NCBI GenBank assembly: GCA_044869275.1
Contig: JBIOXB010000048.1
Location: 18,441-82,440, forward strand
Direction: 5' to 3'
DNA: 64,000 bases
Source: a bacterium
Lineage (GTDB): Bacteria > Zhuqueibacterota > Zhuqueibacteria > Zhuqueibacterales > Zhuqueibacteraceae
Below the pieces are notes generated by a model. The model worked only from the letters and a program-made list of their open reading frames with translations, had not been told where the DNA came from and searched no databases. Shown here piece after piece: positions 39,981 to 58,013 of this stretch; position 1 is the first letter of the stretch; the number at the start of each line of letters is the position of its first letter. The position numbers were made by a program, and so were the translations under genes.

Positions 39981-42900
39981 TTGCAGAAGATGACCATGTA
40001 CAACGCGACAGATAATGTTTTGCCACAAACACCGTCTCATCCCGGCTTGAGATTGGCCAGGCGTTTTGGCGATCTGGTGGCGAAAAGCGCCGACTTGCCT
40101 GACATTCTCCAAAAGTTGGTCGATGACGTCGTGGAGCACTTGGGGTTCGAGATTTGCGCGGTGATCTTGCGTGACGAGGAGAATCCACGCCGGTTGTACA
40201 TGGCGGCGGCTCACGGGCTGAGCGACGCGCACCAAAAACTATTCAACTTGACCATGGGAGAAGGCATCACCGGCCGCGTCGTTGCAACCGGGGAGTTACA
40301 AATCGTGCCGGATATCCGCAGCGAGCCCGCCTATCGCTATCCTGGCATTGCAGCCGTGGAGCGCTTGTGTGCCATGGCCAGCATTCCATTGCAGCATCAA
40401 AAAAGCGTCCTGGGGGCGCTCAATATCTACTCAAGCCAGGCGCACGTCTTTAGCGAAGACGAAATCAATCTCCTGATTATTCTGTCAGACTGGACCGCAT
40501 TCGCCCTGCACCACGCCGAGAAGCGCGAGGCCAAAGAACAGCGGCAAAGGAAATTGATCGAAGAGATCATCCTGCAGACGCAATCCTTTCACGTGTTGGA
40601 CAAAATGATCGCGTGGGTTTTGCAAAAGAGCGCGGAGTTGGTGCGCGGCGATCGGGGCTATATCGCCTTTGTCGATTACGAGAAAAAGCGCTTTTTCCCT
40701 GTGTTCGCGCACCAGCGCAAGGTGGCCAACATTCTGCGCTTGCGCATCGGCTCGCCCCACGAAGGCATTGCCGGTTCCGTGGTGCGGCGTGGACAGGGCG
40801 AGATCATCGACGAGGTGAATGCCGATGCTCGCGTCAAAATAAAGGGAGATCGTCACATCCAATCAAAGGTGCTGGTCCCCTTGCGCTATCAGAATCAAGT
40901 CATTGGCCTCATCAGCATCGACTCCAGGTGCAAAGCGCATTTTCACGAGCAGGACCAAAGAAACTTGGAAGTACTGGCCGGACATCTGGCTTCGATTTTT
41001 CAAAAACAGAAGCTCGATCAGGCGTTTCAAGCGCTGGGCCAGGCGTTTCGCACGATTCATGATCTCAATGAAATTTATAGTACCGTGGTGCGCTGTGGGG
41101 CGGATTTTGTAGGCACGAACGCCGTGGCGCTCTGGGAAAAGGACGGCAACGGCGGTTTCGTTTTGCGCGCCTGCGTGGGATTCGAAAAATTCAAGGCAAG
41201 AAAACTCAAAATCGCGTCAGACAAGGGTATTATCAGCCAGGTGATCGCGCTGCAAGACGTGGCCGTGATTGAAAACGTGAGCGCGAACAAAGAATATGTG
41301 TATCCGGAAATGCTCGCACACGTACGGCCCAAATGGCTGGTGTGCATCCCCATTTTTTTCGGCAACGAAGTTTTCGCCGTGCTGGATGTTTATTCCCGCC
41401 GGCCGCACACCTTTTTCGAGCAGGAGATCAATTATTTGAAGGCCCTGGCGTTGCAAGCCGGCGTGGCGATTCAAAACGCCAAGCTCATCGATCATTTCAA
41501 CCGCATCGGCCAGAGTATTACTTCGTCCCTGGACATTAAGACGATTTTGGCAAACATCGCGCGCAGTGCCCTGGAAGTGCTGTTTGCCGATCCGGTGACC
41601 TTATTCCAATATGATCAAACGACGGGCCGCCTGCTGCCACCGCCGATTTACGCCGGCGAATTGCTGGAGAGAAAAGACTACGTCGAAACTTTCGTCTTTA
41701 CCGGCCATTCCTTTGCGGAGCTGATCATCAAGAACGGTGAAACCCTTTATCTCGAAAGCGACATCGATCTTCACCCTTTAATGGTAGAAGTGAAAAGGCA
41801 CGAGCATGCGGGCATGGCCCCGACCCGGTTCCACGAGCGCGAGCGCATCAAGTCGATGGCGGCACTCGTGTTGAGAGTCGAAAACGAAACCGTCGGCTTG
41901 ATGTTTTTGAACTATCGCACGCGGCAGGAGTTTTCAAATATTGAAAAAAAGATCATGGAGACTTTTGCTTCCCACGCCGCCATCGCCATAAAAAACTCGC
42001 GCCTCATCGAACAATTGCGCAAGAAGGAAGCGTTTCTGCAGAACGTCGTCACCGGAGTGCCGGACCCGATCATTGTCACCGAGAATAAATTTGAAAACGG
42101 GGCACGGTGGTGGCGCATTGCCATGGCGAACCAGGCAGCGCACGAAATGTTCGGCTACGATTTCGCAGCCCAAGAGCTGCTGGGCAAAAACGCCCGCACG
42201 CTGTTCGGCGAGCAATTGCCGCGTTTGCGGGAGGCGTTATATGAAAACGACGGCGAAGTCGCGGACTTCGAAACCTCCTTTCTTCATAAAAACGGGCTCC
42301 CGATTCCGATCAGCTTATCGACTTCCGTGCTGCAAAGAAACGAGCGCCATCGCATTCTCCAGACCATCAGCATCGGAAAAAACTTGACCAATCGCAAGGC
42401 TTTGGAAAAACAGCTCGATCATTTGAACCGCGCCACCATTGCGTTGTTGGGCGCACGCACGCTGGAGCAAGCCTATGACGCCATCTTCGAAAATTTGCGC
42501 CAGATCGGTTATGACAAAGGCATGATCGCTTTGGTGGATGAAGTCTCGCGCAACCTCGTCGCGAAAAGAGCCGTGGGCGAAAAATGGAAAAAATTTATGG
42601 GGGCCGCCAACATCGAATTAGACAACAATCAGATTTTGGCGCAAGTGGTCAGAAAAGGGGAACATGTACTCGTGGAAGACTGCGGCAACGATCCGCGTTG
42701 CGACGTTGCGCTCACACGCCTTGCCGCGGTCAGGTCGCTCTACGTCACGCCGTTGATCGCGCAGAACAAGGTCATCGGCGCGCTGCAAATTGATCTTTCC
42801 GACCGGCAAGACTTGCTCAAGGGCGACAAATACTTTCTGGCGGAAAGCCTGAAAATTCTCTCCGGCTTCGCCAATCAAATCGCCGTGGCGATCGAGGCCG

Positions 42901-43664
42901 ACCACCACAAGATCACCATCGACAAGCTGCGGCTCAAGCTCGCCGACGTCGGCCACGAATTTCGCTCGCCGTTGCACATCATCATCGCGCAGCTCGGCGG
43001 CTTGAACTATCATCTCGCAAAAAAACAGAGTGAAGATCCGCACATGGCAGCCACCTTGCGCATCATGGAGGAAGAAGCCTTTCGCGCCACCCGCCAAATG
43101 ACGAACACGCTGTTTTCCACGGTGCAGTCTTTGGATGCCATGGGCATCAATCTGGAAAAGGGCTACATCAGCAGCACGATCAAGCTCTGCGCCAGCCGCT
43201 TTTTTGAAACCGCGGAAAAGCGGGGCATACGCCTGATCGTGTTCGACAGCATCAAAAAACTGCCGCATCTGTATTATGATACAACCAAATTGGAGCAGGT
43301 CTTCACCAATCTGCTGGACAATGCGGTGAAGTATTCGCATTTCAACCAAAACATCGAGATCAGGGGCCGGGAGGTGGGCAGGAAGATCGAGATTACGGTT
43401 ATGGATCGCGGCCTGGGCATTCCGGAGAATCAATACGAACGCATTTTTCAAGGCTTCACGCGCAGCGAAATTTTGGACGGCACGCGCTACATTCCGGGAA
43501 CCGGGCTCGGCCTCACCATCGCGCGAGAATTCATCGAACAACACAAAGGCAAAATCTGGGTCAAAAGCACGGCGTTCATGAAAGACCCGCGCAAGATTCG
43601 GAACTTCGAAGGCTACGAAACTACTTTCTTCGTACTTCTGCCGCTCAATCCCAAGGAGGTCTAG
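39981..43664 (+). CDS. Soluble multi-GAF/PAS sensor histidine kinase
   Basis: Repeated GAF motifs (GEGITGRV, EGIAGSV, KGIISQV, AAIAIKN), PAS (ANQAAHEMFGY), H-box GHEFRSPL, NLLDNAVKYS, DRGLGI, GTGLGL; no TM segment. Confidence 0.92.
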   Translation: MQKMTMYNATDNVLPQTPSHPGLRLARRFGDLVAKSADLPDILQKLVDDVVEHLGFEICAVILRDEENPRRLYMAAAHGLSDAHQKLFNLTMGEGITGRVVATGELQIVPDIRSEPAYRYPGIAAVERLCAMASIPLQHQKSVLGALNIYSSQAHVFSEDEINLLIILSDWTAFALHHAEKREAKEQRQRKLIEEIILQTQSFHVLDKMIAWVLQKSAELVRGDRGYIAFVDYEKKRFFPVFAHQRKVANILRLRIGSPHEGIAGSVVRRGQGEIIDEVNADARVKIKGDRHIQSKVLVPLRYQNQVIGLISIDSRCKAHFHEQDQRNLEVLAGHLASIFQKQKLDQAFQALGQAFRTIHDLNEIYSTVVRCGADFVGTNAVALWEKDGNGGFVLRACVGFEKFKARKLKIASDKGIISQVIALQDVAVIENVSANKEYVYPEMLAHVRPKWLVCIPIFFGNEVFAVLDVYSRRPHTFFEQEINYLKALALQAGVAIQNAKLIDHFNRIGQSITSSLDIKTILANIARSALEVLFADPVTLFQYDQTTGRLLPPPIYAGELLERKDYVETFVFTGHSFAELIIKNGETLYLESDIDLHPLMVEVKRHEHAGMAPTRFHERERIKSMAALVLRVENETVGLMFLNYRTRQEFSNIEKKIMETFASHAAIAIKNSRLIEQLRKKEAFLQNVVTGVPDPIIVTENKFENGARWWRIAMANQAAHEMFGYDFAAQELLGKNARTLFGEQLPRLREALYENDGEVADFETSFLHKNGLPIPISLSTSVLQRNERHRILQTISIGKNLTNRKALEKQLDHLNRATIALLGARTLEQAYDAIFENLRQIGYDKGMIALVDEVSRNLVAKRAVGEKWKKFMGAANIELDNNQILAQVVRKGEHVLVEDCGNDPRCDVALTRLAAVRSLYVTPLIAQNKVIGALQIDLSDRQDLLKGDKYFLAESLKILSGFANQIAVAIEADHHKITIDKLRLKLADVGHEFRSPLHIIIAQLGGLNYHLAKKQSEDPHMAATLRIMEEEAFRATRQMTNTLFSTVQSLDAMGINLEKGYISSTIKLCASRFFETAEKRGIRLIVFDSIKKLPHLYYDTTKLEQVFTNLLDNAVKYSHFNQNIEIRGREVGRKIEITVMDRGLGIPENQYERIFQGFTRSEILDGTRYIPGTGLGLTIAREFIEQHKGKIWVKSTAFMKDPRKIRNFEGYETTFFVLLPLNPKEV

Positions 43665-43668
43665 GAAC

Positions 43669-44082
43669 ATGTCGAAACGCGTTCTTTTTGTTGACGACGA
43701 GGACTGGAGCGTCACGCCTTATTTCGAAAAGCTGCGCGACCATGGTCTGATCGTGGATCTGGCCGTGAACGGCGACGAAGCCCTGGCGCGGCTGCAGCAG
43801 AACCGCTATGATTTGGTGGTGTTGGATATCATGCTGCCGCCGGGGGAAAAGATGGGAGAGAACGTCGAGCCGCGCAAGGCCGGCGAAGTGCTCTTGCGCC
43901 GGCTGCGTGCCGGCGAGCTTCCCAATCTCAAAACGGCCTCGAACGTTCCCGTGGTGGTGCTGACCGCGGTGACCGATCAAAAGCTTTCGGAAAAAATTCA
44001 AGAGCTGGAAGTCCAGGAGATTTTTCAAAAACCGGCGTCGTTCACCGAGGTGACCGATCGCATTTTAGATTTATTGCAGTAG
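43669..44082 (+). CDS. Single-domain response regulator
   Basis: VLFVDDE, VVLDIMLP, VLTAV, QKP; directly after the kinase. Confidence 0.9.
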   Translation: MSKRVLFVDDEDWSVTPYFEKLRDHGLIVDLAVNGDEALARLQQNRYDLVVLDIMLPPGEKMGENVEPRKAGEVLLRRLRAGELPNLKTASNVPVVVLTAVTDQKLSEKIQELEVQEIFQKPASFTEVTDRILDLLQ

Positions 44083-44165
44083 CAATAGCACCAGACGAAC
44101 GCACAGCACCAAACGGGCCGAAGCGACTTGCGCGTGACCTCTCACGCATTATTTTTCTAACATGA

Positions 44166-44460
44166 TGCTGAAAAACTCTTTTGATGTCATACCCGCGAAG
44201 GCGAGAGGCAGGCCCAATATCTGAGCCCCAACGGGGCGAAATGGACAGGCTTGGGATCGTCAATTGGTTTCATCACACCTTCTTTCGCCCTTTCAGGGCT
44301 AAAGAAACCGTTGTGGTTCGCGCTTACCCAGGGCGTTGCCCTGGGCTTGGCTTATTTTGCCCCTTCGGGGCATGTGGTTCATCTCTACCACAGCGTTAGG
44401 TTGACGCCTATGCGCTTTCGCGGAAATGACAAATCCGACCAATTTGAGACTTTTTCAGCA
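44166..44460. mobile_element. MITE-like element with nested REP-like palindromes
   Basis: Ends TGCTGAAAAACTC / GACTTTTTCAGCA; inner TGTCATACCCGCGAAGGCG / CGCTTTCGCGGAAATGACA; central GCCCTTTCAGGGC, CCCAGGGCGTTGCCCTGGG and GCCCCTTCGGGGC hairpins. Confidence 0.65.
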
Positions 44461-44561
44461 CCCGCCAAGGCGTAAAACTTTGGGTGTAAAAAATTCTCGC
44501 GAAGACGCAGTTTATAAAAGAATATCTACTGGCTGTGGACCCGCAGTGGGGATATCCGTAA

Positions 44562-45278
44562 ATGACAATACTCGAAAACGAATTCGGCAAATTCGTCGAA
44601 AAGCATCCGGCGATTTTGTCCGCGGTCGTCAACAGTTCTTCACTGAATCTCGAGACGCTTTGGAGTTTTCTCGTTTACATATTTGAGCTGAACTATTTGG
44701 CGGTGTTCGAGACCGAGGACGGGGTGCATTTTCGCAAAGTTCATGAAGTGGCAAGAAACCTGCATAAAGAATTGCCGCCGCAACCGGCGCTGGAGGCGAT
44801 GATGCAATCCGCTTATGCCTGGCGCAAGCCGGAATCGCTGCAGAATGAAGCAGAATGCGGGCACGAGCAATGCGCGGTGCAGGCGGTCGCGGCGATTCCG
44901 CTGACCCTCGCCGCGCAACACAAGATGTTGTTGATCTGCAAGCAGCTCACCATGCCGAAGCAGGAAGTCGTGCGCGGATACGTGTTCAACAGTTATGAGC
45001 TGCAACGGTATTTGACGGTCATCAAAAACTTCCTGCGCGTGGCAGAGCAGCAAAAGCAAATACAGGGCGATCGCAAGAAAATCTACATGGGCAAGGCGGT
45101 GGCGATCGCCAGCGGTGTCTTCGGCTCGCTCCAAGCGCTGCAGGCCATCCGCGATCTTTTTGGCAACTTGGGACCGCCGGAGATTCTGAAAGGATTGGTT
45201 ACGATTGCGTTTTTGGCGTTTGCCGTGATCGTTGCTTTTCGTTTGTCGCAATCGGACGAGCCGTTTCAGTTGTTGTAA
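44562..45278 (+). CDS. Hypothetical protein, GAF-like N-terminus plus two C-terminal TM helices
   Basis: 238 aa; AVAAIPL...LLIC...FNSYELQRYL resembles a GAF end; two hydrophobic segments at the C-terminus. Confidence 0.6.
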   Translation: MTILENEFGKFVEKHPAILSAVVNSSSLNLETLWSFLVYIFELNYLAVFETEDGVHFRKVHEVARNLHKELPPQPALEAMMQSAYAWRKPESLQNEAECGHEQCAVQAVAAIPLTLAAQHKMLLICKQLTMPKQEVVRGYVFNSYELQRYLTVIKNFLRVAEQQKQIQGDRKKIYMGKAVAIASGVFGSLQALQAIRDLFGNLGPPEILKGLVTIAFLAFAVIVAFRLSQSDEPFQLL

Positions 45279-45340
45279 GATTTGCCAGCACTTCCTTATC
45301 ATTTGCATTTCCCGCCCTGCGTTTCTATATTTCGAAAAAT

Positions 45341-45553
45341 CGTAACCATTCAGAAGTTTTTTGAGAAAGCAAAACGATTACGGGCAAAACTATTAAAAAG
45401 CTTTGGACAAGATGATTTAATGGCAAAATGATTTCAAATCATTTTGCCATTAAATTATCTTGCCATAAAACGTTTAGGTTTTTTCTGACTTTTGTTGCCA
45501 ATTTCCCATTATGTCAAATGTTTTGCCTGTCATTTTTCTCCTGAATAGTCACG
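45341..45553. mobile_element. 213-bp MITE-like element with target-site duplication
   Basis: TIRs CGTAACCATTCAG / CTGAATAGTCACG (11/13), AAAAAT on both sides, internal palindrome with perfect 20-bp arms at 45415-45455. Confidence 0.7.
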
Positions 45554-45567
45554 AAAAATCGTCATAG

Positions 45568-48500
45568 ATGATGAGTTATGGAAATGAGACTTCCGGGGAC
45601 TATATGCCGCGCCCGCTTGCAGCTTTTGTGATTATTCTTCTCGTTTTTTGGGGTGTTCATTCTTCCCTCGTTCACAGCGCGCAAATTGTGCCGGATTCTG
45701 CGCGCACATCCTCGCTCGCAGCAATAGCCTCGGTTCGCGATACCTCCCTCTCGCACAAAACCGCAGTAAAAGATTCAACCTCCTGGTTTGAAAAACATCC
45801 GGCGCTGACCGGTTTGTTCGGCGCGATTATTGGCGCTCTCGTAGCACTGCTCGGATTGCAAACGATTAAGAAAGCGAGAAAATTTGCGAAAGCCGCAAAG
45901 CAAGGTGAGCTGGAAGCTGCGCATGAGCGCGAAAAAGAAATTCAAATTCAGGCGCAAGACGAGATCGAGCGCCGCTATCTGAACGGCGTGAAGAACGAGC
46001 ACGATTCCCTCAAGCTCTACGGTTTTCAATCCCGCGTAAATTTGGACGTACGCACGCTGGAGGTGTTCGTCTCTCTGCGCTTGATGCCGGAAGAGCGCGC
46101 GGACGAGATGCGCGCTTGGGCGGAAAGAGATGATGGCCGTGCGCTTTCGCCCGAGGAAGTCTTGCAGCGCGCCGCGCGCAAAAAGCGGCTGCTGCTCATC
46201 GTGGGCGATCCCGGCTCCGGCAAAACGACCTTGTTGAAATACTACGCTATTTCCTGTTTGGAAGAGCCGGAGCGCAAGCGTCTGGGCCTGCCACAGCCGC
46301 TCATTCCCATTCTGCTGCCGTTGCGCAAGGTCGATCCCAAGCTGCCGTTTTGCGAGGCGCTGAGCGCCTGGGCCACGCGGCGCAACCGGCCGGTGACTGC
46401 TACTTTGTTCGATCAATGGCTAGAAAAGCGCGGCGCGCTGGTTATGCTCGACGGCCTCGATGAAATCAGCGATCTCGGCAAGCGCCAGCAGGTGTGCGAA
46501 TGGATCGACAACGCCGCGGATTATTACGGCCGTTCGCAGTTCGTCGTGACTTCTCGCTACACCGGCTATCGCGTGTCCGAAGGCATCGCGTTGCACGCCG
46601 ATCATTTGCGCGCGGACGTGCTCGATCTCGACCCCGGCCAGCAGGAAGCCTTTTTGAAAAACTGGTTTGCCGCCATTTACGGCAGAGAGAGCGAAGATGC
46701 GGATTTGACCGCCGAAGCCCGGCAACGGGAAGCTGCCGCCCAGGCGCAGGATTTGGCAGATGCCATTGGGAAATATCTCACACGGCCCGAGAATGAGAGC
46801 CTGCACCGGATGGCGGGCACGCCGATGTTGCTGCAAATCATGGCGCTGTTGTGGAAGGAGTATCACAACCTCCCGCCGGCGCGCGCGGCTTTATATGAAA
46901 AATGTCTCGACTATTTGCTGGATTATCGCGACCGCGATCGCGAGAAGGAAATCATTCCCCTGCTGCCGGCGGACGACGCCAAGATCGTGCTGCGGCCCTT
47001 GTGTTTGTGGTTGCAGGAGATTCGCAAAAGTGATGAAGTCACGGCGAAAGAGATTGCCGCGCAAATCGCCGGCCTTTTGGAGGAGGTCAAGCCGGGCTCG
47101 AAGCCGGCGGAATTCGTCAAAAACCTTTGCGTCCGCGCCGGCATTTTGCAGGAGCTGGGCGAAGGTAGTTACATGTTCCGCCACAAATCTTTTCGCGAAT
47201 ATCTCGCCGCAACGCATTTGGCGGAAGAAGTGAAGCGTGATCCGGCCCGCGCCACAGTGCTGGTGGAAAATTTTCACGAAGGCTGGTGGCGGGAGACCAT
47301 TTTGTTTGCCTTGAGCCTGCCCAAGCCCGTGATCTTTGCGGATTTCTTCACGCGTTTTTTGCCGCATGCCGGCAACGCGCCCAATGCCCTGCCTTTGCTG
47401 GAGCTGGCCATCAAAGAAGCGCGGCAAAAATCCATCGAGCCTTTTGCCGCATTCGTGCTCGATCCGCTGCAGGATTGGCAAAAGCGCTACAATACCTTGC
47501 AATGCCTGCGCCTGATCGCCTCGGAGCCAGCCAAAGACTTGATGCAGCGCGTCTGGGATCTGGAAAAACACCGCGAGCATCAAAACCATGAAGGCCGGCG
47601 CTTGTTACAAAAAGCCGAAGAGATTTTGATCGAATGGAAACTTCGCCGGCCGGAGCCACTGCCTGCGCCGGCGCACGGAACGAAAGTGAGGGCTCATGTT
47701 GCCCAGTCTGAGTATTTGCCGGCCTTTGAATTGGCACAAATTCAGTCACCGAGCTGGCGCAATCCATTCGAATTGGACTCGGAGTATATTCTCATTCTCG
47801 GTGGCAAATATGAATTCTCCGTGACCAATGCAGAGACTGTCGTGCCGGATCTTTACTTCGCCAAATTTCCATTGACCAACAAACTCTATCGCCGGTTTGT
47901 GGACTATCTCGCGGACCAAAACACCGAAGAGATTTTCAAAAAATTGCCGGTGGAACAATTTGCCCAAAACCTGCTGACAAAAGCGACAAAGCTCGAAGGC
48001 CTAGCAGATTATTTGGGCAAAAATCCGCGAGCATGGCATGTTAAGCTGCGGTCGCGCCACAACGACGAGAAGCGCTTCAATAGCGACGATCAACCCGTGG
48101 TGGGCGTAAGCTGGTATGCTGCGATGGCGTATTGTCAATGGCTCACGGAGATGCAAAAGGCAAACAGCTGGGAGCAGAGGGCGGAGGGCATAGCGCAGAG
48201 CGGGCATGCACAAGAGGTTTATCGTTTGCCCACGGAGGCGGAATGGGAATGGGCGGCGAGTGGAGGCAAACGCGAATATCCTTGGGGCAATGAGAAGCCA
48301 GATGAAAGGCACGCAAATTATGGCGGGAGAGTCGGCCACACTACAGCCGTGGGTGCTTATCCCGCCGGTGCAACTCCCGAACCCGAAGGCTTGATGGATA
48401 TGGCAGGCAATGTGTGGGAATGGATGGAAAATCGGTATGATAATAACAAGGCTGCGCGCGCTCTTCGTGGCGGCTCGTGGAACGATGACGCTGACGATCT

Positions 48501-48603
48501 GCGCTGTGCCGCCCGGGGCAGCTGGGGCCCTGATTCTTGGAACTACGTCATCGGTTTCCGTGTGGTGCGCGCCCAGTCCGTCTTTGATACTCTGAAACTC
48601 TGA
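45568..48603 (+). CDS. Membrane-anchored NACHT NTPase with C-terminal FGE-sulfatase (SUMF1/CLec) domain
   Basis: Two N-terminal hydrophobic segments; Walker A GDPGSGKTT, Walker B LDGLDE, VTSR, TPMLL, FRHKSFREYLAA; CLec motifs QPVVGVSW, YRLPTEAEWEWAA, DMAGNVWEW, RGGSW, GFR. Start may be ATG 45604. Confidence 0.92.
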   Translation: MMSYGNETSGDYMPRPLAAFVIILLVFWGVHSSLVHSAQIVPDSARTSSLAAIASVRDTSLSHKTAVKDSTSWFEKHPALTGLFGAIIGALVALLGLQTIKKARKFAKAAKQGELEAAHEREKEIQIQAQDEIERRYLNGVKNEHDSLKLYGFQSRVNLDVRTLEVFVSLRLMPEERADEMRAWAERDDGRALSPEEVLQRAARKKRLLLIVGDPGSGKTTLLKYYAISCLEEPERKRLGLPQPLIPILLPLRKVDPKLPFCEALSAWATRRNRPVTATLFDQWLEKRGALVMLDGLDEISDLGKRQQVCEWIDNAADYYGRSQFVVTSRYTGYRVSEGIALHADHLRADVLDLDPGQQEAFLKNWFAAIYGRESEDADLTAEARQREAAAQAQDLADAIGKYLTRPENESLHRMAGTPMLLQIMALLWKEYHNLPPARAALYEKCLDYLLDYRDRDREKEIIPLLPADDAKIVLRPLCLWLQEIRKSDEVTAKEIAAQIAGLLEEVKPGSKPAEFVKNLCVRAGILQELGEGSYMFRHKSFREYLAATHLAEEVKRDPARATVLVENFHEGWWRETILFALSLPKPVIFADFFTRFLPHAGNAPNALPLLELAIKEARQKSIEPFAAFVLDPLQDWQKRYNTLQCLRLIASEPAKDLMQRVWDLEKHREHQNHEGRRLLQKAEEILIEWKLRRPEPLPAPAHGTKVRAHVAQSEYLPAFELAQIQSPSWRNPFELDSEYILILGGKYEFSVTNAETVVPDLYFAKFPLTNKLYRRFVDYLADQNTEEIFKKLPVEQFAQNLLTKATKLEGLADYLGKNPRAWHVKLRSRHNDEKRFNSDDQPVVGVSWYAAMAYCQWLTEMQKANSWEQRAEGIAQSGHAQEVYRLPTEAEWEWAASGGKREYPWGNEKPDERHANYGGRVGHTTAVGAYPAGATPEPEGLMDMAGNVWEWMENRYDNNKAARALRGGSWNDDADDLRCAARGSWGPDSWNYVIGFRVVRAQSVFDTLKL

Positions 48604-48660
48604 CGATCTGTTACTCTGAAAAGCCGGCGCGGCACGCGCTGGCCTCGAAATTTTTTTCGA
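48466..48660 (+). other. Candidate DGR variable region with downstream hairpin
   Basis: RGGSW..GFR segment dominated by NNY codons; TCTG-ending repeats; stem-loop GCCGGCGCG-GCA-CGCGCTGGC at 48623-48643. Confidence 0.55.
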
Positions 48661-48680
48661 ACTGCAGGAGGTACTTATCC

Positions 48681-48789
48681 TGACTATGTCAGATTCATCG
48701 CTGAGACGCAGAGTGCGCTGAGAATTCAGGCCAATCCCACTCTGCGAACTCCGCAACTCTGCGGTAATTCTTGGAATGTGACATAGTCA
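48681..48789. repeat. MITE/REP-like inverted-repeat element
   Basis: TGACTATGTCAGATTC ... GAATGTGACATAGTCA ends; inner CGCAGAG/CTCTGCG. Confidence 0.6.
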
Positions 48790-48819
48790 AGTTATGAAGG
48801 AAAACGTTGAGAATCGCAA

Positions 48820-49155
48820 TCATTTGCTGGCTTGCAGCTCTTCTCGAATGACGCGCCGCAACACGGTTTCCAAAGCGCTCGTGCGAATTTTTTCTTTGAG
48901 CGCTTCATTGATCAGAGTTTGAAAGCCACGCCCGCCAGCTTGCGCCTTGAAATAGGCGAGAACACCGGCATCAAGAGCGAGGCTCACACGCACTTTTTCT
49001 CGCGGCAAAGGTTTTCTTCCGAGACGCAATTGCGCACGGGCCATCTGTTCTTCCGTCACCTCCGGAATTTCAGAAAGGTCGATATCCTCGTCGCGCATTT
49101 GCGCCAAGCTTTTCCAATCAGCTTGAGAATCCCTTGTCATAGATTTTTTGCTCAT
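48820..49155 (-). CDS. BrnA-family antitoxin
   Basis: DIDLSEIPE, VSLALDAGVLAYFKA..GRGFQTLINEAL. Confidence 0.85.
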   Translation of the reverse strand: MSKKSMTRDSQADWKSLAQMRDEDIDLSEIPEVTEEQMARAQLRLGRKPLPREKVRVSLALDAGVLAYFKAQAGGRGFQTLINEALKEKIRTSALETVLRRVIREELQASK

Positions 49156-49294
49156 TCTTGGTAGCCTTTCGCATGGAAATGATCCGAATTTCGCGCTCAC
49201 TTTCAGTATGCGCAATGACCACCACCATCTTCTGCTGCTCCAAACGCCCCAGTACCGATTTGTAGTCGCTCGGAAGCTGGCAAATGTGGTTCAT
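49118..49294 (-). pseudogene. 5'-truncated BrnT-family toxin
   Basis: 58-aa frame ending VVVIAHTESEREIRIISMRKATKNEQKIY; lacks the N-terminal FEWD..KHG motif; overlaps the brnA start. Confidence 0.7.
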
Positions 49295-52544: not shown

Positions 52545-54566
<2,022 letters not shown>

Positions 54567-54742: not shown

Positions 54743-54758
54743 GAATCGTGGGCTGATC

Positions 54759-55169
54759 ATGAAGTGGAAAGAATGGAAAGAATTCGCCAGTAACGAGGCT
54801 TATTGGCGGAAGCATGAGGAAAAAGGGCTGCTGAAGGCGGAGCATGTGCGTGATTACGTATTGCGGCTTTGGTTTGAAGAGGAGTTGGATGTCTCGATTT
54901 ATGAATTGGATTTTTATCCTCTCATTGTGGAAGATAATCCGGGCGGGGTATTTGCATCTTTGCGCGACTTAGAAAAGTTTAGTTTGGTGCAAGGCGAATA
55001 CGCGTTGATTTGGCTAAAACCTGAAACCGGAACTTATGATGATAAGGCGATCGACATTGCCCCGGAATGTGTGCGGTTTTTTTGTGAGAAATATGGCAAA
55101 AAACTAAAACGTTCCCGGCCGGCGAGGATATTGACAAGATTGACTCGCAAGCATGCTGTCGCGGCGTGA
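54759..55169 (+). CDS. DUF2442-like protein
   Basis: YVLRLWFE...[15 protein letters not shown]...LIW...DIAPE pattern. Confidence 0.7.
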
Positions 55170-56181: not shown

Positions 56182-56643
56182 ATGTCTGAAGAACGTGGAT
56201 TTTTGAAGGGATTGTTTCTCGGTGGTATGCTCGGCGCGATTGCCGCGCTGCTGTATGCGCCCAAGAGCGGCAAGGAAATGCGGCGCGACCTCCGCCGCAA
56301 ATCGCGCGACATTTACGAAGCCGCGGACGAGAGTCTGGGCGAGTTGAAGCGCGAGGCCGTCGACATTCTTGAAGAGGGCAAGCGCCAAGCCATTAAGCTG
56401 CGCCGCCAGGCCGATGAAAAACTGCATGAAGCCAGGGAGTCGGCCGAGCGCTTGATGCACGAAGGCCGCGAGCTGGTCGGTAATTCGGGCGAAAAGGTCG
56501 CCGACATCAAGGCGCAGGCGCAAAACATCATCGAAGAAGGAAAAAAAAAATTCGTAAGTGGAAAAGATAAGCTGAAATCCGCGGTCGATGCCGGCAGGCA
56601 GGCCTATCACGACGAAGTCAACGGCGGCGAGCCAGCAAATTGA
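56182..56643 (+). CDS. YtxH domain-containing protein
   Basis: GFLKGLFLGGMLGAIAALLYAPKSGKEMR; AAGGAG RBS. Confidence 0.88.
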   Translation: MSEERGFLKGLFLGGMLGAIAALLYAPKSGKEMRRDLRRKSRDIYEAADESLGELKREAVDILEEGKRQAIKLRRQADEKLHEARESAERLMHEGRELVGNSGEKVADIKAQAQNIIEEGKKKFVSGKDKLKSAVDAGRQAYHDEVNGGEPAN

Positions 56644-56689
56644 TCGGCGCTTCTGCCAAACCTGTTGAATGCCAGAGGGAGAAGTGCCG

Positions 56690-57076
56690 ATGGAAATGGT
56701 GTTGACCGTCAGTGTGGCGTTTATTGCGTTTTGTATGCTGCTGATCATGGCCGCGATTGTCATGACTTTGATGCGGGTGCGCAGCCTGTTGCGCGAAGCC
56801 GAGAAGTTTGTGGAAACGGTGCGCATGCACGTGCCGCCTTTGATGCATGACGTCACGCAAATCAGCTCGGATGTGCGTAGCATAGTCAGAAGCGTCGAGC
56901 GCGACATGCCCAAGCTCAGTCGCGCCATGGATTCTTTGCGCGCCACCGCTGGCGACATTCACGATCTGGAGCGCGCCATTCGCGAGCGCATTGAACGGCC
57001 GTTGCTGGGCCTATCCGGTGTGATTGGCGGATTGTTGCACGGCTTTAACGCTTTTTGGCGCAAGCTCTTGGGATAG
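56690..57076 (+). CDS. DUF948/YtxG-like membrane protein
   Basis: N-terminal TM plus coiled-coil region; paired with the YtxH gene. Confidence 0.65.
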   Translation: MEMVLTVSVAFIAFCMLLIMAAIVMTLMRVRSLLREAEKFVETVRMHVPPLMHDVTQISSDVRSIVRSVERDMPKLSRAMDSLRATAGDIHDLERAIRERIERPLLGLSGVIGGLLHGFNAFWRKLLG

Positions 57077-57084
57077 TTATTTTG

Positions 57085-57146
57085 CCACAGAGCATACAGA
57101 GTTGGGCGAGGTTTTCGTAAGCCTCAACTCTGGCCGCTTTGTGGCA
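57085..57146. repeat. REP-like hairpin
   Basis: GCCACAGAGC..CAGAGTTG / CAACTCTG..GCTTTGTGGC. Confidence 0.5.
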
Positions 57147-57182
57147 TTCATTTTTGAGGAATTTGTTGACAGGAGTTCAAAC

Positions 57183-58013
57183 ATGCAGGCAACCGAGCTG
57201 GACCGACGGCTGCAGCTGTTGCGCGAAATTGTGCAGGCAGCCAGCGCAGTGGTTTTGGAGTATTACGACGAACGCGTCGCCATCGAATGGAAAGCGCCGG
57301 GCGATCCGGTGACCGTGGCGGATCACGCCGCCAACGAATTGATCCTGGCGCAATTGCATCGCCATTTCCCCGGTGAAACCGTGCTCTCGGAGGAAAGCAG
57401 CGACGACATGCGCCGCCTGGGCGCGGCACAGTTTTGGGTGGTCGATCCGCTGGACGGCACGAAAGAATTCATCAAGCGCAACGGCGAGTTTTCGATCATG
57501 ATCGGCATGATCGAAAATGGGCTGCCCGCTCTGGGCGTGGTGGGCCAGCCGGCGACGCAGTTTTTATATTCCGGAGCGGAGGGCTTGGGCGCGTGGCTGA
57601 GCACGCCGCGCGGCGAGCAAGTTTTGCGCGTCTCGACGATGTCCGCGCCCGCGCAATTGCGCATGGTCGCCAGCCGTTCGCATTTCGATCCGCGCGTGGA
57701 CCGCGTGCGCCAGCGTTTGGGCATACACGAGATTCTGCGCTCGGGTAGTGTGGGCTTGAAATGCGGCCTGATCGCGCGCGGCGATTGCGAGGTCTACGTG
57801 CATCCCAGCTCGCGGGTGAATTTGTGGGACAGTTGCGGCCCGGCCGCAATTCTCACTGCCGCAGGCGGCAAAATGACGGATTTGCACGGAGAAACATTGA
57901 ATTATTCCGGTGTCGAAGTGCGCCATCGCCATGGCCTGCTGGCGACGCACGGCCGCTTGCACGAGCAAGTGGTTGAGACGCTGGCGAGTGAGGGTGTTGT
58001 TGTTCAGGAATAG
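57183..58013 (+). CDS. cysQ: 3'(2'),5'-bisphosphate nucleotidase CysQ / inositol monophosphatase family
   Basis: PVTVAD, LSEE, WVVDPLDGTKEF, GSVGLK, WDSCG. Confidence 0.82.
   Translation: MQATELDRRLQLLREIVQAASAVVLEYYDERVAIEWKAPGDPVTVADHAANELILAQLHRHFPGETVLSEESSDDMRRLGAAQFWVVDPLDGTKEFIKRNGEFSIMIGMIENGLPALGVVGQPATQFLYSGAEGLGAWLSTPRGEQVLRVSTMSAPAQLRMVASRSHFDPRVDRVRQRLGIHEILRSGSVGLKCGLIARGDCEVYVHPSSRVNLWDSCGPAAILTAAGGKMTDLHGETLNYSGVEVRHRHGLLATHGRLHEQVVETLASEGVVVQE

Follow-up and report, generated by a model that had tools for sequence, protein, structure and literature searches.

The gene at 45568-48603 of the 64,000-nucleotide stretch analysed here (the window) has the 3' end of a likely DGR target, which raises the question of whether this end is still being rewritten and, if so, from where. 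The probable answer is that it is a former cis target, stranded when its cassette was deleted, and that its tip is now frozen. The genome (G000) is available as an assembly of 6.67 Mb in 255 contigs, 94% complete. It was compared with a relative of the same genus (G001) and with another relative (G004).

Gene and protein architecture

The coding features are the following.

45568..48603, + strand: gene for a signal peptide/TM-NACHT-helical-FGE/CLec protein, an ORF of 1011 aa without internal stop, start possibly at 45604
45604..45678, + strand: predicted signal peptide, aa 13-37, with a hydropathy peak at aa 17-35; homologs open with a similar segment, then a polar linker
45802..45858, + strand: predicted single TM helix, aa 79-97, Gly/Ala-rich and followed by a basic stretch, from hydropathy and homolog comparison
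46186..46671, + strand: NACHT NTPase, aa 207-368, above the Pfam cut-off, Walker A and B intact
47833..48570, + strand: FGE-type C-type-lectin domain (FGE-sulfatase, aa 756-1001), above the Pfam cut-off, related to TvpA (PDB 2y3c)

The order of N-terminal hydrophobic segments, NACHT and C-terminal FGE/CLec domain given in the initial annotation was borne out on an intact frame of 1011 codons. The true start may be the ATG at 45604, because the G001 ortholog begins near there. The segments at aa 17-35 and aa 79-97 are both hydrophobic, with a Kyte-Doolittle value of 2.3 each in a hydropathy scan, which is not a TM predictor. The topology follows from the positive-inside rule: with a basic stretch after the TM helix, the NACHT and CLec domains are predicted to be cytoplasmic. 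Like the topology, the fold and the oligomerisation of the protein are predictions from its sequence.

The Walker A (GDPGSGKT) and Walker B (MLDGLDE) motifs are invariant across 79 aligned homologs. With an intact NACHT and a C-terminal sensor domain, the protein appears to belong to the NACHT/STAND NLR-like receptors. It does not appear to be a formylglycine-generating enzyme, in which a Cys-containing insert after RGGS has a catalytic role; this insert is absent from the CLec domain of the window and present in an FGE-like paralog on contig C164 of the same genome. No Pfam match was seen ahead of aa 190 and no N-terminal enzymatic effector or adaptor domain was found; the N-terminus consists of the signal peptide, the TM helix and a charged helix only. 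In an Atlas comparison of this part no score reached 0.9, the highest being 0.87 to clusters without a name, and PADLOC and NCBIfam gave no defence family above cut-off, the matches being weak and below the cut-off where one is given. A TM segment in this position had been regarded as unusual, but an N-terminal hydrophobic segment is present in 88 of 114 homologs, and a TM N-terminus appears to be the norm for the NACHT-CLec family.

Selection on the scaffold is purifying, with dN/dS of 0.14-0.16 outside the variable region (VR) against the G001 ortholog and 0.84 within it. The G001 ortholog carries a frameshift and an in-frame stop, so the protein is apparently dispensable in the G001 lineage. 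The NACHT-CLec gene is preceded, in the same orientation, by genes for a GAF histidine kinase and a response regulator. One homolog is annotated 'signal transduction protein'.

The variable region and the 3' elements

The end of the gene carries three features.

48453..48578, + strand: DGR variable region, with the variable codons at 48481-48552; it can be aligned to the G001 template and is now without a matching template
48591..48618, + strand: four TCTG units with an 8-nt period, a 3' mark common to DGR targets of the NACHT-CLec family
48623..48643, + strand: GC-rich hairpin of 9 pairs including one G.T, with a GCA loop, 20 nt after the stop

Column entropy is high at aa 972-977, 984-987 and 989-995, between fixed scaffold residues. 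From RGGSW to GFR (48481-48552), 20 of 24 codons end in C or T, as compared to a fraction of 0.50 in the remaining gene (binomial p 7.6e-4). The NNY pattern noted earlier is thus real, but two TGG codons, which together with CTG and CGG are the exceptions, were missing from the list given then. No other 24-codon window of the gene reaches 20 such codons, but several reach 19, and the bias conditioned on the amino acids has a p of 0.048, so the codon bias of the VR alone is modest evidence.

The VR differs from the G001 template at 20 of 31 template A's and at 13 of 85 other sites (p 7e-7), and its divergence from six further templates of relatives is also A-biased (p 2e-4 to 2e-3). In G001 itself, the VR of the ortholog on contig C75 differs from the template on contig C144 at 21 of 31 A sites and at none of the 85 non-A sites; by this match, the ortholog of the window gene is a verified target of an intact template. 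It is likely, from the distribution of these differences and from a hairpin that does not resemble a terminator, that the 3' end of the window gene has a DGR ancestry, as the initial annotation proposed.

The TCTG units were found as first described, and the strict array of four occurs only once in the 6.67-Mb assembly. We considered whether the array could be the heptamer flank of four-helix-bundle genes, 9 of 10 of which have such arrays by eye, and rejected this; those arrays are purine-rich upstream and pyrimidine-rich downstream of their genes, whereas the array in the window is pyrimidine-rich and lies upstream of avd. The position, the nine pairs and the loop of the hairpin also agreed with the first description, but with one G.T pair it is not a perfect GC stem. 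The hairpin was not called as a terminator. In relatives the hairpin is located between the target and avd, and several targets of the family are without one. It is likely that 48623-48643 is a DGR homing hairpin rather than a terminator, and the target-side elements, an IMH-like end and a hairpin, appear to be present at this putative orphan target.

The downstream junction

Downstream of the hairpin the window contains the following.

48666..48671, + strand: leftover ribosome-binding site AGGAGG; the G001 ortholog alignment runs to 48671, where avd starts in G001; left edge of the proposed deletion
48679..48791, unstranded: MITE-like element of 113 bp that has terminal inverted repeats and is flanked by TTAT on each side; at the proposed deletion junction
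48820..49215, - strand: BrnA antitoxin gene, right flank of the proposed deletion; in G001 the ortholog of this gene comes after the second DGR target

The corresponding region of G001 is found on two contigs. C75 has the left flank (window 40314-48671, 77-80% nt identity), followed by avd, and terminates in an IS end. C144 has a 96%-identical copy of the IS, the template, the RT, a second NACHT-CLec target and then the right flank, which is shared with the window at 48810-49173 (BrnA), 52554-54559 (ligA) and 56233-57986. Of the 9 nt compared, 8 agree between the left flank of the IS on C75 and the right flank of the IS on C144, whereas the left flank on C144 itself shows no such agreement. 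Between these flanks G001 thus has avd, template, RT and second target, about 5.8 kb split at the IS, and the window has only the leftover ribosome-binding site and the 113-bp MITE. Only in G001 did the upstream neighbours also adjoin the gene. True trans targeting of the G001 ortholog was considered as well; this was dropped after the synteny result, and the ortholog is better read as part of a cis cassette split at the IS.

The ancestral order, reconstructed from one relative and across the contig break at the IS, would have been target 1 (the window gene), avd, template repeat, RT, target 2, BrnA and ligA. In the window lineage about 5.8 kb, from the start of avd to the end of target 2, would then have been lost, leaving the ribosome-binding site and the MITE. 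Recombination between the two targets is not favoured as the cause, because the tail of the window gene can be aligned with target 1 up to and including the ribosome-binding site, and the CLec domain of the gene is closer to that of target 1. Copies of the MITE-like element were found on contigs C91 and C139, and the same end motif at seven contig ends. Similar decay was observed in G004, where a 5' piece of the template is fused to the 3' end of the RT and three targets are without a template.

Template and reverse transcriptase searches

No matching template was found in the G000 assembly by blastn, by an A-aware sliding scan of the whole genome or by a scan for AAC tracts, and a scaffold motif search with 2 mismatches gave none either. 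A template pattern scan gave one match, on contig C184, which misfits the window VR; the whole-genome blastn proposed earlier, for a template beside an RT and avd, also led only to this template. C184 carries the sole complete DGR of the genome, with its one DGR RT and its one avd above cut-off, both intact-looking. Over the same 69-nt core the C184 template has 0 non-A mismatches to its own VR and 15 to that of the window. The genome has three RVT_1 matches (C154, C184 and C137) and none lies in the window, as had been observed. The RT on C154 was rejected as a DGR RT because it adjoins genes which, from family names recognised in their translations, we take to be cas1/cas2-like, and that on C137 because its best scores are to retron-type models.

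The scaffold pattern of the VR gave 0 matches in metagenome contigs and 0 in viral contigs, and in genome contigs only the G001 loci. A protein scan of the metagenome contigs retained 79 loci, whose best segments were 30-62% identical, and among 220 loci every template had 12 or more non-A mismatches over 80 nt.

Run X1, with a depth of about 13, is the probable source run and may be the source of the assembly; its data are contigs, which drop rare variants, and some records were filtered out. One X1 contig of 3291 nt is identical to the window from 45438 to 48728, and at 48516-48649 there is no further depth from any other contig. The comparison of the VR rests on X1, and runs X2-X4 have no cover over it. 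No template matching the window VR was found among the X1 contigs. An X1 contig with 16 differences in 98 nt at 48226-48323, the same figure as for the C184 paralog, was recovered, and a template as similar as that of the G001 target/template pair, at about 82% identity and with exact runs of 25 nt, should therefore be detectable.

The initial annotation saw the gene as hypervariable and diversified in trans. On this view the tip would still be rewritten from a fitting template by an RT, both encoded at another site in the cell or carried by some members of the population. We find this unlikely. It is true that the VR, the TCTG array and the hairpin are all still there, that the assembly is incomplete and that intact-looking RT and Avd remain on C184, and the available text of PMC10907252 reports trans targeting as well as intact and degraded variants existing together. 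In our family census, 3 of 19 target-like ends match a template on another contig, but one of these three is the G001 ortholog on C75, better explained by the split cassette. The empty template searches in the assembly and X1, the X1 contig without variation and the restriction of the scaffold pattern to G001 also speak against remote rewriting, and the G001 synteny makes it most likely that the cassette lay directly downstream and was deleted. With no matching template and the adjacent retroelement apparently deleted, the tip is probably frozen.

It is very hard to maintain that the gene was never a DGR target in this lineage and encodes an ordinary FGE-fold signalling protein or enzyme followed by a terminator. 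The weak amino-acid-conditioned codon bias, the two-component genes upstream and the label of one homolog would fit such a gene, but among 232 loci the two-component genes adjoin the target in G001 only, the ortholog VR agrees with a real template at every non-A site and has avd after it, the hairpin precedes avd in relatives and was not called as a terminator, and the Cys-containing insert is absent. As to DGR ancestry this explanation is largely refuted.

Diversification of the window gene by the C184 DGR despite imperfect homology is extremely improbable and largely refuted: the two are in the same genome, and the C184 target is a paralog (45% identity) with the same VR length and with common 3' motifs, including CCTCGAAATTTTTT, present at both target ends and at one unrelated site, but DGR homing copies the non-A bases of the template into the VR, and those of the C184 template, expected in the window VR, are absent there.

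Probable function and relation to known systems

The DGR that remains in the genome, on C184, serves its own target with a template of another sequence type. Following the NLR/STAND model, the CLec tip would bind a single, specific ligand in the cytoplasm, probably derived from a phage or another invader, and the NACHT module would exchange nucleotide and oligomerise at the inner membrane, held by the single TM. No enzymatic effector is fused that would supply the output step. An NLR-like immune role is a published hypothesis for the NACHT-CLec family.

A more far-reaching proposal, which we regard as unlikely, is that of a bacterial NLR lineage with a single conserved Gly-rich membrane helix as its sole output. 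Ligand at the DGR-written tip would make the NACHT wheel gather the helices into a depolarising pore, like the plant resistosome, frequent DGR deletion would fix successful specificities as a memory that is inherited, and the address read by this DGR clade would be the TCTG octamer array rather than the hairpin. As a probable former cis target whose tip is probably frozen, the window gene is an ordinary member of a known family; both DGR-diversified NACHT-CLec sensors and leftover targets have already been published.

The closest published systems are compared here as far as the accessible text of each paper goes. Dore et al. 2024 (PMC10907252) describe clade 5D DGR-diversified STAND/NACHT-CLec sensors, proposed to be antigen sensors, which like the window protein have a NACHT, a C-terminal CLec VR and N-terminal extensions without known domains. 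Their cassettes commonly have two targets, and MITE-like repeats replace the RT or template, as here, whereas the window gene is one stranded target with a signal peptide, one TM and no template found. The NACHT targets of DGR 3 are predicted on either membrane side, and CLec-STAND fusions had no experimental characterisation as of that paper. The host studied here appears, from the labels of homologs, to be related to KSB1, which is not mentioned in the accessible text of the supplements of that paper.

In Treponema denticola, 8 of 17 isolates have targets without RT or template, and isolate SP32, like the genome studied here, has a leftover FGE-type target from one DGR type while the complete DGR of the genome is of another type (Nimkulrat et al. 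2016, PMC4891356). Those leftover targets are lipoprotein-type CLec proteins without NACHT. In the window, synteny allows the site of the deletion to be placed. The FGS-type 'antigen receptor' NACHT proteins (Kibby et al., bioRxiv 10.1101/2022.07.19.500537; Kaur et al. 2021, PMC8195603) also combine a STAND NTPase with an FGS domain, have DGR components close by or in another part of the genome and are proposed as analogs of adaptive receptors. They have enzymatic or adaptor N-termini and multi-TM C-termini, and a signal peptide with a single N-terminal TM is not singled out in the accessible text; the window protein is without an effector-associated domain or fused enzyme. The hairpin of Bordetella BPP-1 (Guo et al. 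2011, PMC3240598; Wu et al. 2018, PMC5758913) is like that of the window in its GC-rich stem of 8-10 bp shortly 3' of the VR, but the loop in the window is a 3-nt GCA as compared to the 4-nt GRNA consensus. Such repeats occur in 34% of DGRs (PMC5758913), and the TCTG array is not described in the accessible parts of these two papers.

The window locus is a well-resolved example of DGR turnover, with the deletion placed to about 140 bp by synteny and with a second DGR of incompatible template coexisting with the stranded target in the genome. A VR and hairpin without a nearby RT need not imply activity in trans, and a target and template on separate contigs may belong to a single cassette that is split at an IS. 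Signal-peptide/TM-NACHT-CLec proteins form a large family, and an intact, probably frozen member would be a convenient clone for asking what role the TM plays.

The gene and its protein

The features of the window used here are the following.

45568-48603: gene under study, an intact open reading frame of 1011 aa
48591-48618: four TCTG units with an 8-nt period
48623-48643: hairpin after the TCTG units, GCA loop, 9 pairs of which one is G.T
48666-48671: AGGAGG, at the position of the avd (DGR accessory gene) start in the ortholog of G001, a relative of the same genus
48679-48791: MITE (short element with terminal inverted repeats), 113 bp, flanked by TTAT left and right; copies also on two contigs of the genome, C91 and C139
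48820-49215: BrnA antitoxin gene; its ortholog also lies 3' of the diversity-generating retroelement (DGR) in G001

Pfam places a NACHT domain at aa 207-368 and an FGE-sulfatase domain (C-type lectin, CLec) at aa 756-1001. The NTPase motifs are intact, and hydrophobic segments are found at aa 17-35 and aa 79-97, both before the NTPase, with basic residues after the second. The domain order and the four TCTG units of the initial annotation are borne out. A profile of 79 homologs matched TvpA (Treponema variable protein, PDB 2y3c) with E 9e-17, among 28 FGE-fold sequences. Judging from the sequence, aa 17-35 would be a signal peptide and aa 79-97 the single transmembrane (TM) segment, which would leave NACHT and CLec on the cytoplasmic side. 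Conservation is lower in the TM columns, where Gly and Ala recur, than in NACHT (mean entropy 2.37 and 1.49 bits, respectively); the segment may only anchor the sensor, or may itself be the effector. In an NLR-like cycle, ligand binding would lead to oligomerisation.

Of 7997 candidates scored in the protein search, 565 matched at E 1e-30; those with labels include several from KSB1, as well as Calditrichaceae, Aminicenantes and Sedimentisphaerales. The Walker A pattern is present in 114 of the 120 matches listed (query and its paralog included), and these have two hydrophobic segments before it in 54 cases, one in 34 and none in 26. The N-terminus is thus modular, as other homologs start with soluble regions of unrelated kinds. 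Both Kibby et al. and PMC8195603 describe NACHT sensors of the FGS type with links to DGRs, FGE-sulfatase is counted among STAND sensors (PMC13581612), and most clusters of cellular DGR targets have an N-terminal TM or signal peptide (PMC8144416). Among the papers listed, none had a title on a NACHT effector consisting of a TM only or on the TCTG array, which is not proof of absence.

The variable region

The gene is a real former DGR target. Codons ending in C or T make up 20 of the 24 in 48481-48552 (background 0.50, p 7.6e-4; p 0.048 once conditioned on amino acids), and dN/dS against the G001 ortholog is 0.84 within the variable region (VR) as compared to 0.14-0.16 outside it. Compared with the G001 template, the VR is changed at 20/31 A's and 13/85 other sites; it bears the DGR bias, but the non-A differences imply that it was written by a diverged template. 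This suggests continued activity of the cassette for a period past the species split. The hairpin proposed earlier is present, with a G.T pair in its stem, and the terminator scan did not call it as a terminator. Hairpins and non-adjacent DGR targets are treated in PMC5758913 and PMC3240598.

The cassette in G001

Contig C75 of G001 matches window 40314-48671 at 77-80%, followed by avd and an insertion sequence (IS) end at the contig end. Contig C144 carries a DDE transposase, its start 96% identical to the C75 IS end, then template, RT and a second NACHT-CLec target, followed by orthologs of window 48810-49173 (BrnA), 52554-54559 (ligA), 54745-55108 and 56233-57986. Both G001 VRs agree with the C144 template at 85/85 non-A sites. 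The IS left flank of C75 matches the IS right flank of C144 at 8/9 nt, and C144's own left flank does not match. From this we infer one ancestral cassette, target 1-avd-template-RT-target 2, which the IS would have split in G001, in the assembly or in fact. A cassette between the same flanks argues against the gene being a remote target, as first proposed. The span between the flanks is 5.8 kb in G001 (751 + 5054 nt without the IS) as compared to about 140 bp in the window, where the AGGAGG and the MITE lie.

The best matches in the window's genome, G000, to the G001 RT (59%) and second target (40%) are more distant paralogs only. The MITE may be the cause of the deletion or a later arrival. 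Its end motif also occurs at seven contig ends (C22, C129, C154, C156, C234, C235, C252), and is common to two multi-copy, unassembled IS-like elements there. In the G001 ortholog (L035) the reading frame shifts past the TM and an in-frame stop interrupts NACHT, which speaks against an essential role of the protein, yet the ortholog's VR still agrees with the template at every non-A site.

Search for a template

G000 has three RTs, and a DGR only on C184 (1000-6051), complete with NACHT-CLec target, avd (NF033474 over cut-off), template and RT. Its target has 1026 codons, a soluble N-terminus and 45% identity to the window protein. Between the template and the VR of its own target, 14/23 A's and 0/61 other sites differ, as compared to 15 non-A sites within a 69-nt core for the window VR; the C184 DGR does not fit the window VR. 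No candidate template besides C184 was found by A-aware scanning of the 255 G000 contigs, all of them on both strands, an AAC-tract scan, a scaffold-motif search with 2 mismatches allowed or a template-pattern search. At the C184 target end the TCTG array is degenerate, and no strong GC hairpin precedes the T tract. A leftover target alongside an incompatible DGR is described in PMC4891356. Of the other RTs, one stands alone immediately 5' of cas1- and cas2-like genes (C154:39276-41957), a probable RT-linked CRISPR adaptation module, and one is retron-like and overlaps the end of an HTH gene (C137:2313-3597).

Four DNA sequencing runs of one study, X1-X4, were compared as assembled contigs, where rare variants drop out, with some records filtered. 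The VR lacks coverage in X2-X4 and the result rests on X1, a possible source of the assembly, in which 45438-48728 is spanned by a single contig of 3291 nt, with 0 differences and a depth of 13.2; no further contig adds depth at 48516-48649. Another X1 contig aligned at 48226-48323 with 16 differences in 98 nt, the figure of the C184 paralog. Since so diverged a contig aligned, and a true template-VR pair of G001 shares 82% identity and an exact run of 25 nt, X1 would probably have revealed a template. Current hypervariability in trans, as claimed initially, is thus not supported. The depth peak in the run comparison is due to a multi-copy palindromic intergenic repeat at 45340-45480, 5' of the gene; 13 other contigs carry related copies.

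Cassette decay in the family

A DGR-like RT was matched in 15/19 family genomes, where some weaker matches may be other RTs. The 74 family loci include 19 target-like ends with a TCTG array: a template lies within 10 kb in 6, and on another contig in 3, one of them G001 C75. For the other 10 none was found, an upper bound since in several cases a contig end is close by or the genome is incomplete. The G004 genome is 100% complete; three such targets in it lack a template, and a stub of template is joined to what remains of an RT. In L041 (G004:C19) and L051 (G055:C62) the template is joined directly to the 3' part of the RT gene; these fusions are internal deletions disabling the cassette. L043 (G009:C28, about 45700-45780) lacks an RT and has a template-like repeat without mutations, 5' of a 3' end of target type with TCTG array and hairpin, as if recombination between template and a second VR had removed the RT. 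PMC10907252 describes STAND/NACHT-CLec DGRs with two targets, loci that act in trans or are disrupted, and MITEs in place of RT or template.

The TCTG octamer array was seen at 41 distinct family target ends, chosen by the array itself, with or without hairpin. In L014, L020 and L024 it leads directly into the avd start without a stem-loop, and a second sub-lineage (L032, L053) has CTTT-type arrays at that position. Of the G000 TIGR02436 four-helix-bundle genes (L221-L230), 9/10 have, by eye, degenerate 7-9-nt arrays on either side, rich in purines upstream and in pyrimidines downstream, the unit differing gene by gene. It is possible that the TCTG array is a clade-specific targeting element.

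Most likely, the window gene is a target stranded by deletion of its own cis cassette, and its VR would now be frozen.
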